A DNA stretch of 64,000 nucleotides from Octopus vulgaris (GCA_951406725.2 OX597818.1:39060001-39124000); one strand, 5' to 3'. Counted from the first letter of the stretch, positions 4,193 through 62,827 are shown. The notes: generated by a model from the sequence alone, not told the origin. Program-made: numbers and translations.

Positions 4193-4381
4193 ATTTTTGT
4201 CAGCGCCAATGATGGAGGACAACCACCTAAAAGTGCCTTTGCTGTTGTGACTGTTTTAGTATCAAGAAATCTGCATTCTCCTGTCATCACTTCTGGTCCG
4301 TCTATTCAAATATGTAGAAAAGAAAGCCAAGGTATTAGCCAACCTCTTTATCAGGTACAAGCTTCAGATGCAGATAGTGGG
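4193..4381 (+). CDS. cadherin exon 1 (long type, 63 aa IFVSANDGGQPPKS...VQASDADSG)
   Basis: tttttag|ATT...GGG|gtaag; AxDxGxPP and DxD motifs. Confidence 0.93.
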
Positions 4382-4825
4382 GTAAGTTATGCATTTTAAT
4401 TCATTAAGAAAATACAAAATAAGAAGATATAAATAAAAATTTTACTTATAATGCTGAAATAGGTAAATTAATGACACCTCATGATATTGGTGTGTAGAGT
4501 ATTTTGTATTTAAAATATAAATATGTATATATATATATATATATGATACATATATGCCTATATATATATGTATATATATATATATATGATACATATATGC
4601 CTCTATATATATGTATATATATATACACATGTATGCATATACATATATATGTATATATATATATATATACATATGTGCATATTTATATATATATATAAGC
4701 ATATATGTGTATATATATACATATATGCATATATATACATATATGTATCTATATATATATATACATATATATATATATATATATATATATATGTATATAT
4801 ATGCATATATATATATATATAGGAG

Positions 4826-5214
4826 GAGACACCCCTTCGGTCACGACACAGACCATGGGATTGCACATAGAAAGTTACCATCCTAGACACAAGTCCGGGC
4901 GAGGTTGCTTATGGAAGGCCAGCAGTCGCCTATGCATACCGGCCTTCCCTCTCCACGCCACAAGTGTTATCCAAGGGAAAGACAAAGGTCGACACAGCTT
5001 GGCACAAGTGACATCGCAACTCATTTCTACAGCTGAATGAACTGGAGCAACGTGAAATAAAGTGCCTTACTCAAGAACACAACACACGGCCCGATCCGTG
5101 ATTCGAGCTCACAACCTCACGATCATAAGCTCGACACTCTAACCACCTAGCCATGCGCCTTCACTGAGCCATGCGCCTTCACTGAGCCAATGCGCCTTCA
5201 CTGAGCCATGCACC
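4826..5214 (-). mobile_element. tRNA-derived SINE, family B, with tandemly amplified 5' end
   Basis: reverse complement of 15331-15651 and 45582-45908. Confidence 0.85.
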
Positions 5215-5221
5215 TATATAT

Positions 5222-6092
5222 ATATGAAAGAAGGTTTGAAAATGCAGTTTTAAAAGATATTTATTTACTTTAGCGGTTTCACTTTTTAGAAAAAGATTGT
5301 CAAAAGTAATATGTAAAAGTTTGGTTGTGTTAATTATTGGTTGTCACAAAGTGCTACAATATTTTAATGAACTTGTTATACAGTCTTTGGTAACAAGAAC
5401 ATGTTAAGGACATAAAAAAGTTCAACAAGTTCATTAAAATATTGGGCACAAAATATTACAACATATATATACATTCTCAAGAAAATTCTCAAGATAGTTT
5501 CCAGAAGGAATTATTAAAAAGTTCAGTGGAATATTGGTATTGTATCTGTATATATATATATATACACCCACAGAATATTGGTTGTCACAAAATACTACAA
5601 TACATATATACATTCTTTGGTAACAAGAACATGTTAAGAACATAAAAAAGTTTAACAAGTTCGTTAAAATATTGGGCACAAAAGATTACAACATATATAT
5701 ACATTCTCAAGAAAATGTTAAAGATAGTTTCCAGAAGAAATTATTGAAAAGTTCAGTGGAATTAGGTATTGCATCTGTATATACATACCCGCACAGAATA
5801 TGAGTTCAAAAAAGTTTGCATTATAGTAGTAGGGAAGCTCAAACTGACCTGGTCCACCATGTTATTGTAAAAGACTATTTTCTACTTCAAGTGACAGTGT
5901 GCCCAATATTTTAACGAACTTGTTAAACTTTTTTATGTTCTTAACATACCAAAGAATGTATATATGTATTGCAGTATTTTGTGACAACTAATAATTAACA
6001 CAACCAAACTTTTACATATTACTTTTGACCATCTTTTTCTAAAAAGTGAAACTGGTAAAGTAGATAAACATTTTCAAACCTTCTTTCATATA
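5222..6092. mobile_element. fold-back element: ~200-bp inverted arms plus internal ~241-bp tandem duplication; probable Penelope-like terminal repeats
   Basis: 5222-5450 is inverted at 5897-6092; 5336-5576 is repeated at 5577-5810; degenerate hammerhead core at 6021-6061. Confidence 0.65.
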
Positions 6093-6381
6093 TAATTCCA
6101 CTTGTGCGGTACCTTACAACTCCACTTTGTTATATATATATATATATAACCAGCTGATCTAGTGAGGGGGGCCGGTGCGCATTGATGCCGTCGAGAGGTA
6201 GGCCCCGAAACGGCGCGCATTCTCTCCTGATGACCCCATACACTTGCTAGCTTCCGATATACGGAGCTTTTAACTGGTAGCACTTACATGTGCAAGTTGT
6301 TTGCAAGATATATATATATATGCATATATATATATATATGCACATATATATATGCATATATATATATGCATATATATATAT

Positions 6382-7108
6382 ATAACTTAGAATAACTTAG
6401 AAAGGTTTTTGGCCAGTATTGGCCCAGGCCATGTCTAACTTAATAGCACCACCTGGCAAAGTCTTTCAGTTCAGGATTTGGGCACCAAGGCCCATTCGAG
6501 CAGAGAGTTATTGTTTGCGGAGACATATCCGGGTGTGGGTGGTTTGTCTGGTACTGTTTGAAGGAATTTGTCCAAAGACTTCTTGAATTTTGTGTGGTCA
6601 GTTTCTTTTTTGACGTGTCCTGGTGTAATGTTGAAGAGAGCGGGTCCAATTGAGGTGAAATAGTTGTGCCGTATTGTCGTTATGTGATGCGATTTAGATT
6701 TTTGTTGTGGACGGATGGCACGTGGTCCAAGCCTTGGATGCATTTTGAAGGTGATGCCAACATCATTCGGACAGTGCTGATGGAATATTTTCCACATCAT
6801 ACAGATAATGTAGCGTTCACGGCGTCGTTGGAGTAAATACAGTTTCAGCTTCTCTAGTCTACCCCAGTAGTCAAGGTCTGACATGCCATCTATCTTTTTT
6901 GTGATTGACCTTTGGGGAGCTTCAATTCTCATAATATTTTGTTTTGTGTAGGGAGACCACAGTGGACAGCAGTATTCAAGGTGGGGTCGGGCAAAAGTGG
7001 AGAAGAGAAGGATAATAGCGTGGGAATCTCTCGACTGGAAGGTTCTGAGAATCCAGGAACACATTCTGCGGGCCATGTCAACTTTGCTGCATATATGTGT
7101 AGCCCAAT
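6382..7108 (-). mobile_element. CR1/L2-like LINE 3' fragment inserted in TA-rich microsatellite
   Basis: [14 protein letters not shown]...QRSITKKI...[20 protein letters not shown]...FKKSLDKFL; (ttctaagtta) tail. Confidence 0.9.
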
Positions 7109-7512
7109 GCATATATATATATGCATATATATATATATATATATGCATATATATATATATGCATATATATATATATATATATATATATATATATATGCAT
7201 ATATATATATACATATATATATATATATGCATATATATATATATATATGCATATATATATATATATATATATATATATATGCATATATATATATATATAT
7301 GCATATATACATATATATATATATATGCATATATAATAATAAATATTAGGGAATAAATCCAAATTTACAGGGAAAAAATCAGATTTAGGATTAAATCCAA
7401 TTTTATAGTAAAATATTATAAAATATTATTAGAGACAAAACCACTATTTTGCAAAACAAACAAGGAAAGACTTAATCAATACATAAAATTTTAATAAATA
7501 GTAAAAAAACCG

Positions 7513-60402: not shown

Positions 60403-60678
60403 TATACATACACACACATACAAGCATTTATGCATTCATATATATATACCTAGTAACTTTTTTCGGTTATTATCTGAATTCTAGCTCACGAACCTACCTA
60501 ACAGTTTCATACACACACACACATATGTATGTATGTATGCATGCATACATGTATGTATGTGTGTGTGTATGTATATATATTTATGCATATATATATATAT
60601 ATATACACACACAAAGAAAAGAAAAGAATAAATAGAATCAAAAGGAAGAGGGAGTACGATTTGACAGCTGTTTAATGG

Positions 60679-60780
60679 CTACTACACATGTTTCGATGCA
60701 GCATAGATCCACATATATACAGGATTTAAATTATGTAACGTTTACCTGTATACTAGGACCTAGTTGTATCTCCTCAGGTG
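60679..60780 (-). ncRNA. decayed type I hammerhead motif with extended stem II
   Basis: CAC-CUGAGGA-GAUACAAC...GCUGCAUC-GAAAC-augu-GUA-GUA; core intact, stems mismatched. Confidence 0.55.
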
Positions 60781-61197
60781 ATATATAATTGTTGTCTCCG
60801 TAAATAAATGTTTGATTTCTTAACAGAATACACCTCAACTATATATATATTTATAGTGTGTGACTTTGTGTACAAATAGATGCAGAACTACTACTATTGA
60901 GTTTAGGGTAGCAAATGCTGAAGAAATTAAAATAAACACTCGTTTATATCATTTATTTCTAAGTTCATTTTACTATTATGGTTGTCTAGAACTCTACATT
61001 ATGTTGCAGAGAGCTGAAGTCTTTCGCTCTCTACAACATAATGCAATAATCTGTTCTCTGGTGATCTGTTGTGTTGTATTTAGAATATCCGATGCAGAGG
61101 TTAAAACAACCAGGAGAGTATAATGTACAGAAAAGAAGAAATGATATAAACATGTGTTTATTGTAATTTTTCATATATAGAATATAAAGAAAGTCAG

Positions 61198-61546
61198 AGT
61201 GGAGGTGCAAAGGTCCAGTGGTTAGGGCAGTGGACTCGTGGTTGGGAGATTGTGGTTTTGATTCCCAGACCTGGCGTTGTGTGTGTTTATTGAGTACAAA
61301 CACCTAAAAGCTCCACGAGGCTCCAGCAGGGGGTGGTGGCAACCCCTGTTGTACTCTTTCACCCCAACTTTCTCTCACTCTTTCTTCCTGTTTCTAGAGT
61401 AATGCTGTGATAGACGGGCATCCCGTCCAGCCGGGGGGAACAAAATATGCCATAGAAACCGGGAAACTGGGCCCATGAGACTGGCTAGGCTTGAAAAGGG
61501 TGCATAAATAAAAAATAAATAAATAAATAAATAAATAAATAAATAA
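61198..61546 (+). mobile_element. SINE with family C head but different 3' half, (AAAT)n tail, 12-bp TSD
   Basis: aaagaaagtcag at 61186-61197 and 61547-61558. Confidence 0.85.
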
Positions 61547-62137
61547 AAAGAAAGTCAGGAGGTATGAGATGAATATCTTTATTTAACCAGTTGATCCCTA
61601 TAGGATGAGGATTGTTTTGTGGCCAACATTATGGAAAAATAATTTATTATACCCTAAAATAAGTTATTTTTCTATGATGTTAGCTGCAAAATGATCATAA
61701 TCCTATGATATCAACTGGTGAAATAAATATATTCATCTCATATCTCCTCACGTTATATTCTATATACTCTTCATGAAATAATCTTCACTGATTGGTTTTA
61801 CGAGATTTCAGTTGCATAGGACTCTACATTACACACTTATGTATTGGTTTACTTTGTAGTTTGTAGCATGGTCCACTAAAGGGGCTTTTTTTTTTTAGTA
61901 TCACTGGATTATATAAATCCATTTTTGTGCGTGTGTGTTGTGTTTGTCTCCCATCACTGCCTGACATCTGGTGTTGGTTTGTTTATATCCCCATGATTTA
62001 GCAGTTTTGCAAAGAAAGAAGAAGTACCAGGTTTAAAAATAAGTACTGGGGTTGACTTGTTTGACTAAACCCTTCAAGGCAGCATCCCAGCATAGATGCA
62101 GTCCAAAGACTAAAACAAGTAAAAAGCTAAAAGACAT

Positions 62138-62568
62138 TCTCTTTTACTTGTTTCAGTCATTTGACTGTGGCCATGCTGGAGCACAGCCTTTAGTCGAGCA
62201 AATCGATGCCAGGACTTATTCTTTGTAAGCCTAGTACTTATTCTATCGGTCTCTTTTTGCCGAACTGCTAAGTTACGGGGATGTAAACACACCAGCATCG
62301 GTTGTCAAGTGATGTTGGGGGGACAAACGCAGACACACAAACATACACACACACACACACACACACACAGACACACACACATATATATATATATACATAC
62401 ATATATGCGATGGGATTCTTTCAGTTTCCGTCTACCAAATCCACTCACAAAACTTTGGTCGGCCTGAGGGTATAGCAGAAGACACTTGCCCAAGGTGCCA
62501 CGCAGTGGGATTGAACCCAGAACTATGTTGTTGGTAAGCAAGCTACTTACCACACAGCCACTCCTGCT
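62138..62568 (-). mobile_element. SINE family A, antisense, tail-to-tail with an older 3' fragment (61925-62130)
   Basis: reverse complement of family A. Confidence 0.9.
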
Positions 62569-62701
62569 ATAATAACTGCTATATTTATGACTTCTAAGTC
62601 ATGATGATGATTTTAGAATGTTAGTTTTGTCTTATTTTGAAAGTGAAACGCTTTATAACATTACAATTTAGATAACTGTCTTAAACAATTTTATATTTCA
62701 G

Positions 62702-62827
62702 CCTGACATTTCTTATACACTCACTGGTCTTAACCAAGCCATGGATTATTTCCAAATCAATGAAAGGGGAGATATAAGCGTGAAAAGTAGCTTAATTTCA
62801 GACAAATTCAAACAAACTGTTTATTAT
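62702..62827 (+). CDS. cadherin exon 23 (short, 42 aa PDISYTLTG...FQINERGDI...TVYY)
   Basis: atttcag|CCT...TAT|gtaag; not in the ORF track. Confidence 0.9.

Follow-up and report, generated by a model that had tools for sequence, protein, structure and literature searches.

Exon organization of the locus

The window, that is, the whole stretch of 64,000 nucleotides of Octopus vulgaris DNA analysed here, lies wholly inside a single gene that spans at least 413 kb and runs on at both sides. De novo exon finding recovered 23 exons on the + strand between 4193 and 62827, all bounded by AG..GT and in phase 0, with 1,266 codons in total. This is exactly the number of exons given in the earlier note, and the 12 linker sequences listed there read identically in the spliced exons. 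Within the window, exons of about 62 codons (A type; strands F and G, linker, strands A and B) alternate with exons of about 43 codons (B type; strands C-E), and one A+B pair is fused (19329-19643). The exons are as follows.

4193-4381, + strand: exon 1, A type; linker 8 (Arg-Asn) between strands F-G, from array repeat 8, and strands A-B, from repeat 9
8494-8619, + strand: exon 2, B type; strands C-E of repeat 9
10363-10551, + strand: exon 3, A type; linker 9 (Arg-Asn)
14086-14220, + strand: exon 4, B type; repeat 10
19329-19643, + strand: exon 5, fused A+B; linker 10 (Arg-Asn); Pfam Cadherin, E 1.8e-8; in spliced contigs
21645-21833, + strand: exon 6, A type; linker 11 (Arg-Asn); in spliced contigs
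23232-23357, + strand: exon 7, B type; repeat 12; in a spliced contig
25519-25704, + strand: exon 8, A type; linker 12 (Arg-Asn)
30094-30234, + strand: exon 9, B type; repeat 13
30934-31119, + strand: exon 10, A type; linker 13 (Arg-Asn)
33925-34056, + strand: exon 11, B type; repeat 14; the sole DRE of the array
36575-36769, + strand: exon 12, A type; linker 14 (Arg-Asn)
40984-41106, + strand: exon 13, B type; repeat 15
43346-43537, + strand: exon 14, A type; linker 15 (Lys-Asp)
46129-46257, + strand: exon 15, B type; repeat 16
48072-48257, + strand: exon 16, A type; linker 16 (Gly-Asn, no basic residue)
50901-51017, + strand: exon 17, B type, short and diverged; repeat 17
53544-53726, + strand: exon 18, A type; linker 17 (Arg-Asn)
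55108-55245, + strand: exon 19, B type; repeat 18
55497-55679, + strand: exon 20, A type; linker 18 (Lys-Asn)
57045-57179, + strand: exon 21, B type; repeat 19
59543-59719, + strand: exon 22, A type; linker 19 (Arg-Asp), with loss of DxD
62702-62827, + strand: exon 23, B type; repeat 20

The fused exon belongs to the cadherin superfamily (PF00028), with a score of 35.1 bits that lies above the Pfam cut-off, and a protein search with it among targets of 185-2,000 residues gave no match at E 0.001. Two splices were found at the predicted bases, 19643 to 21645 in contigs of runs X2, X7 and X10 and 21833 to 23232 in contigs of run X7, these runs being guessed to be RNA. The longest contig across the gene reaches 8,182 bases, against a predicted mRNA of about 28 kb.

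Over its length, the gene could be followed as three blocks (window-relative coordinates).

About -74,100 to -39,500, + strand: Cad99C-like EC1-EC8, with an N gap at -71,819; no exons recovered for EC2
-35,999 to +295,977, + strand: the array, whose 75 repeats are spread over 148 phase-0 exons with 7,779 codons and without a stop
+298,703 to +338,759, + strand: EC9-10-type linker, EC10, EC11, membrane-adjacent domain, transmembrane exon and T-x-L tail

The array sits exactly between EC8 and EC10, and the window covers 12 of its 74 junctions. A frameshift, a pseudogene and a mis-assembly were considered for it and rejected, as AG and GT are present in 148/148 exons, no stop occurs, and the linker exons are only 15-45% identical to the first. 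The encoded protein would have about 85 cadherin repeats and about 9,200 residues, a count that assumes a complete EC1-8 because the EC2 exons were not traced, and its ectodomain would measure roughly 385 nm. For comparison, the best 150 representatives retrieved are all of 7,984 residues or fewer. Protein searches returned no full-length octopus protein, only the C-terminal fragments P0282, P0283 and P0281. Genome searches with the transmembrane exon and with the EC3-4 exon of the gene each gave one match (7 and 3 candidates scored, respectively), and the membrane region of insect Cad99C, used in the same way, lacked the power to recover even the octopus gene; a very diverged short paralogue may thus still exist in the genome.

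A basic linker motif in the array

Canonical cadherin linkers bind three Ca2+ ions by means of the xE, DRE, DxNDN, DxD and AxDxG motifs, and this complete set was not found here. In the window, 11 of the 12 linkers carry a basic residue followed by Asn or Asp, which is Asn in 9/12, and the binomial probability of such linkers given the composition of the array itself is about 1e-20. Among 259 other cadherin proteins retrieved, only 12 of 5,089 linkers are of this type. Compared with DxNDN, the linker lacks one residue, and Arg stands where the first Asp would be. The linker pattern of a giant cadherin described in the earlier note is therefore real, although both this shortening and the extension of the gene past the window had been missed. 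Its motif inventory also held: DxNDN is absent from the window and from the entire 7,779-residue array with its 74 linkers, the only DRE of the entire array lies in exon 11 (33925-34056), and the first Asp of DxD and the Asp/Asn of AxDxG are each kept in 11 of the 12 window linkers. The xE motif is kept in 6/12 window linkers, and DxE occurs in 2/74 linkers of the array.

The motif recurs in gastropods, bivalves, one nemertean and one brachiopod, with Arg in 185 of 240 non-cephalopod junctions; the Arg, whose lack of conservation would have told against the inference of the earlier note, is kept in orthologues of three phyla. One bivalve model (P0196) has 28 repeats, with EC1-8 all present. 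Adaptation to low calcium was set aside as its cause, because the motif occurs in freshwater and in marine species, and the sea is rich in calcium.

Identity of the gene

Judged from sequence and structural models, the gene is the octopus orthologue of Cad99C/PCDH15, as an array variant and not a typical member; it is classed as a variant because it has about 85 repeats instead of eleven. Both ends of the protein contribute to this assignment. When the last 270 residues of five family members are made into a profile, the insect protein P0090 scores 170 bits with it and the next protein 22. The cluster of P0295 is named cadherin-99C, and the C-termini of P0090 and P0295 correspond to the Cad99C tail motif given in PMC2171266. 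The octopus gene has a single transmembrane helix and ends in ETTTIL, a C-terminal class I PDZ motif (T-x-L). An AlphaFold model of the EC10-to-membrane region of the family member P0279 shows a ferredoxin-like membrane-adjacent domain of the MAD12 kind, and its top Foldseek hits are PCDH15 EC9-MAD12 and EC10-MAD12 (6eet, 6bxz; TM 0.53-0.55), as compared with TM 0.40-0.44 against CDH23. With the Pfam family PCDH15_12th, mollusc membrane-adjacent domains fall below the cut and arthropod ones score weakly, and a PDB sequence search with P0274, which comprises this domain, the transmembrane segment and the tail, gave no relevant match.

On the N-terminal side, positional homology was found for EC1-8 and, beyond the array, for EC10-11. 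In the tree, mollusc EC2-5, 7, 10 and 11 each fall with the Cad99C repeat of the same number (SH-aLRT 80-95; bivalve EC2 unplaced), EC8 does so with SH-aLRT of only 69, and mollusc EC6 falls apart from its Cad99C counterpart. The two Ca2+-poor positions of Cad99C, EC5-6 and EC9-10 (PMC2171266), are matched in the octopus gene by non-canonical linkers at window-relative -52779 and 298703.

Database names would instead place the gene with Fat or Fat-like cadherins, or in a separate giant-cadherin family, as homologues are called 'protocadherin Fat 1/4-like' or 'CELSR-like'. Fat cadherins carry LamG/EGF domains, which are absent from five C-terminally complete homologues (P0125, P0141, P0142, P0144 and P0196) and from P0282; the membrane region and tail are of the Cad99C type, and one source name is itself 'cadherin-99C-like'. 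We regard such an affiliation as highly improbable. The Fat4-like label mentioned in the earlier note is a database artefact, given a protein that lacks LamG and EGF and whose two ends are of the Cad99C/PCDH15 type.

Origin of the array

Tandem copying of EC9 is the likely source of the array. When 69 octopus repeats are combined, without their linkers, into a profile, EC9 is its top domain in both Cad99C proteins (73 bits in one and 72 in the other, with the next domains at 59 and 65, respectively), and the three EC9 rows all nest among array rows in the tree. With the motif columns masked, EC9 is the best domain in 7/12 comparisons, EC2 in 4 and EC6 in 1, and in starfish PCDH15 EC9 is not the top domain. 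The array clade (support 87) leaves out one array row and includes EC5 and mollusc EC6 as well. Taken together, the sequence supports the EC9 origin only moderately. The array shows a two-repeat period, and therefore the copied unit would have been a pair at some stage.

In Cad99C/PCDH15 the top of EC9 faces a Ca2+-binding linker and its base the Ca2+-free EC9-10 linker; for this reason, joints between copies of EC9 would be expected to inherit DxD and AxDxG and to lack DRE and DxNDN. The pattern expected from EC9-EC9 joints is the pattern seen in the array.

Calcium site 3 and the linker arginine

The four side chains of calcium site 3 are complete in 51/74 octopus linkers and in 218/312 pooled junctions, and members of the set are lost together. 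The 23 octopus linkers without a full site 3 are mostly odd-numbered and in the C-terminal half (6/19 intact). In octopus, the first Asp of DxD pairs with its own AxDxG Asp, encoded in the next linker exon (55/59 versus 2/13, p 3e-8), whereas the control pairing with the AxDxG Asp of the same exon has an odds ratio of 0.6; the 240 junctions from outside cephalopods gave the same result, with odds ratios of 9.4 for the linker's own pair and 0.3 for the control. Arg co-occurs with the third DRE position, xE and the second Asp of DxD, which are the acids of its own interface. An acid occupies the third DRE position in 28/48 octopus Arg linkers versus 2/26 others, and in 112/185 versus 11/55 of those outside cephalopods (controls 0.9 and 1.0). 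When only the 218 junctions with intact site 3 are considered, the odds ratio of Arg is 9.4 with the third DRE position and 8.4 with xE. Pairs of closest relatives gave 30 versus 4 for Arg and acid and 22 versus 1 for the site-3 pair. Tree-based independent pairs, with 3-4 supported pairs only, were not significant, a stratified octopus test of linker Asn and top Asp had a p value of 0.12, and the control for Arg and xE (next linker) was itself weakly positive (p 0.03-0.04). Such co-occurrence shows a shared interface and is not proof of direct contact.

Since the site-3 ligands are mostly kept and are lost together, and since Arg tends to be found where sites 1/2 have their acids, the joint likely comprises one Ca2+ ion plus an Arg salt bridge and is not calcium-free. 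One Ca2+ would be held at site 3 of each joint, with Arg bridging to the acids of the emptied sites 1/2; selection would then have settled on Arg in place of the first Asp, on Asn at the site-3 position and, at the third DRE position, mostly on Asp and not Glu. In stiffness, such a joint would likely lie between a joint with site 3 alone, which would be softer, and one with three ions, which would be stiffer. The salt-bridge substitution put forward in the earlier note thus fares well in one respect, as Arg is conserved and tracks the acids of sites 1/2 as predicted, but its calcium-independent version is not supported.

That version, in which Arg and hydrophobic packing alone hold the joint and the kept Asp residues are structural or bound to Arg, draws on the absence of DRE and of both DxNDN Asp residues, and in RET a buried Arg can stabilise the Ca2+-free, cadherin-like CLD3-4 interface (PMC8266384). 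It is nonetheless improbable in view of the complete site-3 sets. The top Asp is, moreover, strongly associated with Asn and with the first Asp of DxD and only weakly with Arg (odds ratio 2.5). In addition, PCDH15 EC5-6, with the same motif losses, holds one Ca2+ at site 3 in crystals (PMC7547225). The same linker is flexible in those crystals, which favours another reading, namely that site 3 is kept but the joints are hinges in a floppy chain or coil, with an Arg that is inherited or lies at the surface, for example for glycan or partner binding. The linkers lacking a full site 3 agree with this, as does the AlphaFold model of a seven-repeat oyster fragment, which has confident domains (pLDDT 82.5) with cadherin Foldseek hits, a pTM of 0.37 and no good whole-chain match. 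A low pTM is, however, normal for any long tandem array and uninformative on joint geometry. An intact site 3 does not abolish the association of Arg with the acids of its interface, and in Arg linkers the third DRE position is Asp 130 times and Glu 9 times, as if shortened for a longer partner; we therefore consider flexible hinges unlikely, albeit less so than calcium-free joints.

Function and comparison with other cadherins

By orthology, the protein is likely a long apical tether of microvilli or cilia with a PDZ-anchored tail, and it would span gaps several times wider than the 11-repeat Cad99C. The fly protein, at 50 nm, was judged too short to span gaps and was argued not to link microvilli to each other (PMC2171266). 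We think it rather probable that the explanation holds as a whole, that is, a Cad99C/PCDH15 orthologue with copied EC9, one-Ca2+-plus-Arg joints and the role of an apical tether of about 385 nm. A wider proposal, which we advance tentatively, is that lophotrochozoans multiplied EC9 before molluscs, nemerteans and brachiopods split, that a new standard joint evolved in which Arg replaces the two basal Ca2+ ions, and that the resulting protein, which with about 85 repeats and close to 0.4 micrometre would rank among the longest known cadherins, might link microvilli, cilia or cuticle, including in cephalopod mechanosensory cells.

With arthropod/Drosophila Cad99C the gene shares collinear EC1-8, Ca2+-poor EC5-6 and EC9-10, EC10-11, the membrane-adjacent domain, the transmembrane segment, the juxtamembrane tail and the PDZ end; Cad99C has 11 repeats and a single EC9, whereas the octopus gene has about 85 repeats, 75 EC9-like repeats, a new linker class and a shorter tail. 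Vertebrate PCDH15, a tip-link cadherin, is the best structural match of the EC10-EC11-MAD12 model and its EC5-6 shows the same losses with one Ca2+, but among its 11 repeats partial-calcium linkers are isolated, unlike the shared motif of the array. An Arg that fills sites 1/2 was not found in the literature covered, and Ca2+-free cadherin linkers lack a common motif (PMC5120219). CDH23 and CDHR2/PCDH24 are likewise long cadherins of apical links, CDH23 has a membrane-adjacent domain that resembles the one here, and PCDH24 EC2-3 binds two ions and is still rigid; they differ in their mostly canonical linkers, their tail and, for CDH23, the poorer structural fit given above. Fat, Fat-like, Dachsous and other giants (e.g., Nematostella P0121, 7,285 residues) also have very long EC arrays, but with linkers dominated by DxNDN.

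Cadherin rods are taught as three-calcium joints, odd linkers being rare exceptions without a common motif. A recurring alternative joint, with dozens of copies in three phyla, would offer a testable two-domain construct relating ion number to stiffness, of relevance to tip-link mechanics. Neither the array nor the Arg-linker motif was found described in a full-text search of mainly openly readable papers. If the length of the ectodomain holds, gaps beyond the reach of fly Cad99C could be bridged. The analysis also identifies the actual cephalopod orthologue of a deafness gene, which databases split into pieces labelled Fat or CELSR. A primer for the published 'Oct-PCDH15' maps to the protocadherin cluster on another contig.

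Exons, linkers and extent of the gene

The window covers G000:C5:39,060,001-39,124,000; its exons were called de novo, giving 23 that are in phase 0 and have AG/GT ends throughout. The 12 linkers they encode read as the earlier note had given them: a basic residue followed by Asn/Asp is present in 11 of the 12, DxNDN in none, and DRE occurs in exon 11 alone. Linkers of this type are rare elsewhere (12 of 5,089 among 259 other retrieved cadherins). In the alignment to solved cadherins the linker Arg falls on the first Asp of DxNDN and is followed by a one-residue deletion, so the Asn keeps its position. 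The predicted exon joins were matched to the base by contigs from three of the four sequencing runs compared; a single contig of 8,182 bases includes the three exons compared and would span about 52 exons if it followed the same exon chain.

The array of EC9-like repeats spans -35,999 to +295,977, counted from the window start, with two exon types, A (linker) and B (strands C-E), alternating without exception. It comprises 148 exons, 7,779 codons with no stops, 75 repeats and 74 junctions. Exons on its 5' side carry DxNDN-type linkers and match EC1-8 of the homologues in order; EC2 exons were not found among them, and the interval where they are expected holds an assembly gap of 100 N (-71819 to -71719, L013). 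On the 3' side we found two further repeats and, after them, a membrane-adjacent domain, a single transmembrane helix and a tail whose last residues are ETTTIL. This brings the protein to about 85 repeats and about 9,200 residues, with an ectodomain of about 385 nm as calculated from the 50 nm for 11 domains used in PMC2171266. The following features were observed inside the window:

19329-19643, fused A+B exon, the sole such fusion across the 75 repeats, likely an intron loss
50901-51017 and 53544-53726, repeats 17-18, diverged and short, with a Cys pair and a shortened strand B, resembling a local kink
20050-20420 and 23890-24300, intronic interspersed repeats, likely SINEs, on which a very large number of contigs fall in each of the four runs compared
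3692-4102 (-), 6474-6923 (-), 9645-10049 and 44343-44711, fragments resembling by eye the reverse-transcriptase end of a LINE; a Pfam search of these gave no match

Identity of the gene

The gene is real, conserved and mis-annotated, and represents a variant within a known family. Over the membrane and tail exons it differs very little from an Octopus sinensis protein (P0283), and its homologues carry Fat-like names in the source databases. The Fat layout includes LamG and EGF domains, which is in part established knowledge; these are absent from the homologues and a Fat-like identity was rejected. A profile of the C-terminal region scored 170 bits against the insect protein P0090 and 22 against the next protein. 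P0090 and P0295, the latter from a cluster named cadherin-99C, both have the 11 repeats and the tail motif described for Cad99C in PMC2171266. For the predicted EC10-EC11-MAD-TM model of the homologue P0279, PCDH15 was the best structural match and CDH23 the next. In a domain tree, built on 101 columns and with many forks open, mollusc EC2-5, 7, 10 and 11 group with their Cad99C counterparts (support 80-95). We therefore regard the gene as very probably a Cad99C/PCDH15 orthologue. A genome search found one copy each of its transmembrane exon and EC3-4 exon. No description of the array or of the recurring Arg linker motif was found in the literature searched.

A basic site in EC10, presumably furin-like, was observed in most lophotrochozoan members and in starfish PCDH15 (P0125, P0141, P0144, P0273, P0277, P0279 and P0046); cleavage there would free the giant ectodomain. 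The site is degenerate in octopus (L044-L045, near 303,100-304,300 from the window start) and absent from arthropod Cad99C.

Proposed origin of the array from EC9

The array is flanked by a canonical EC8-9 linker and a Ca2+-free EC9-10 linker. According to PMC5120219, the base of PCDH15 EC9 has none of the motifs XEX, DYE and DXNDN, while its top contributes to a Ca2+-binding linker of canonical-like type. An array made by copying EC9 in tandem would thus retain DxD and AxDxG but not DRE or DxNDN, the composition observed in the array linkers. Searched with the array profile, EC9 was the top Cad99C match in both arthropod proteins, and on the domain tree it nests within the array, alongside EC5 and mollusc EC6. 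When the motifs were masked, EC9 was best in 7 of 12 comparisons and EC2 in 4. These sequence comparisons lend moderate support to a putative EC9 origin.

Repeats within the array show a two-repeat period, with a mean score of 96 at lag 2 vs 73 at lag 1. Consecutive gastropod repeats match octopus repeats in order (e.g. 20-22, 55-58 and 63-65), an order taken from best hits of which many are off-diagonal. From these collinear runs we infer that much of the array would predate the cephalopod-gastropod split.

The linker joint

In canonical linkers, the ligands of site 3 are the linker Asn, the two Asp of DxD and, from the following repeat, the AxDxG Asp. Sites 1 and 2 use xE, DRE, both linker Asp and the second Asp of DxD; these assignments come partly from established knowledge. 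Of the 74 octopus junctions, 51 retain every site-3 ligand, including 30 of the first 36. In the C-terminal half (133,000-296,000 from the window start, L027-L044) alternate junctions tend to lose both site 3 and the Arg; site 3 is intact there in 6 of 19 odd junctions vs 15 of 19 others, suggesting alternating stiff and hinge joints. The members of site 3 are encoded in different exons; loss of one is accompanied by loss of the others, but not by loss of the equivalent residue in the adjacent joint.

Three features co-occur with the Arg: an acidic residue at the third DRE position (Asp in 130 and Glu in 9 of 231 Arg junctions), xE, and the second Asp of DxD. Its links to the third DRE acid and to xE could reflect general decay of the joint, but they persist among the 218 of 312 junctions in which site 3 is intact, which argues against that explanation. 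These counts overstate independence, since the repeats are related; when closest relatives were paired the signal was kept, at 30 vs 4 for Arg and acid and 22 vs 1 for the site-3 pair, with controls at 22 vs 16 and 3 vs 4 and a weakly positive Arg-xE control (25 vs 11). A tree-based test on independent pairs was underpowered, with 3-4 supported pairs, and reached no significance. The PCDH15 EC5-6 joint, which lacks DRE and DxNDN and has DXD and XDX, is described in PMC7547225 as flexible and as binding one ion at site 3. The octopus joint probably combines one Ca2+ with an Arg salt bridge.

Distribution among relatives

A profile (A1) built from 73 of the 74 linker exons and searched in two ways recovered the same linker class in 11 of 270 retrieved proteins, from Babylonia, Haliotis (2), Patella (3), Saccostrea, Potamilus, the nemertean Tubulanus, the brachiopod Lingula and 1 further; the C-terminal search added fragments from Dreissena, Pinctada, Argonauta and O. 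bimaculoides. Both classified members of the nearest atlas cluster point to annelids, as a lead only. Among 240 non-cephalopod junctions from 13 proteins, with canonical linkers, end junctions and matches below 25 bits excluded, Arg is present in 185, Asn/Asp in 199, the first DxD Asp in 208, the AxDxG Asp in 218, xE in 177 and DxE in 3.

The freshwater mussel model P0196 is full length, with 18 array repeats and 28 in total; array length may vary widely between species, or this model may miss exons. Among P0285, P0124, P0125 and P0144, the abalone models put the N-terminus of one copy together with the tail or array belonging to another, and C-termini of two kinds occur in limpet. This suggests tandem paralogues in gastropods; octopus appears single copy. 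The cadherins P0131 and P0174 have near-perfect two-repeat arrays; their linkers are also non-canonical but have no relation to the Arg class.

Possible function

Cad99C is apical and its ectodomain sets microvillus length, its 50 nm being judged too short for gaps of >400 nm (PMC2171266). By orthology, there is an even chance that the octopus product serves on microvilli or cilia as a long tether or spacer at the apical surface. The 2.8 Gb genome holds large clusters of single-exon protocadherins on another contig, C14. An 'Oct-PCDH15' was assayed in PMC7465212; it is likely a different gene, from the protocadherin cluster on C14, because its forward primer matches the genome once, at G000:C14:9695136-9695155, beside a protocadherin match.
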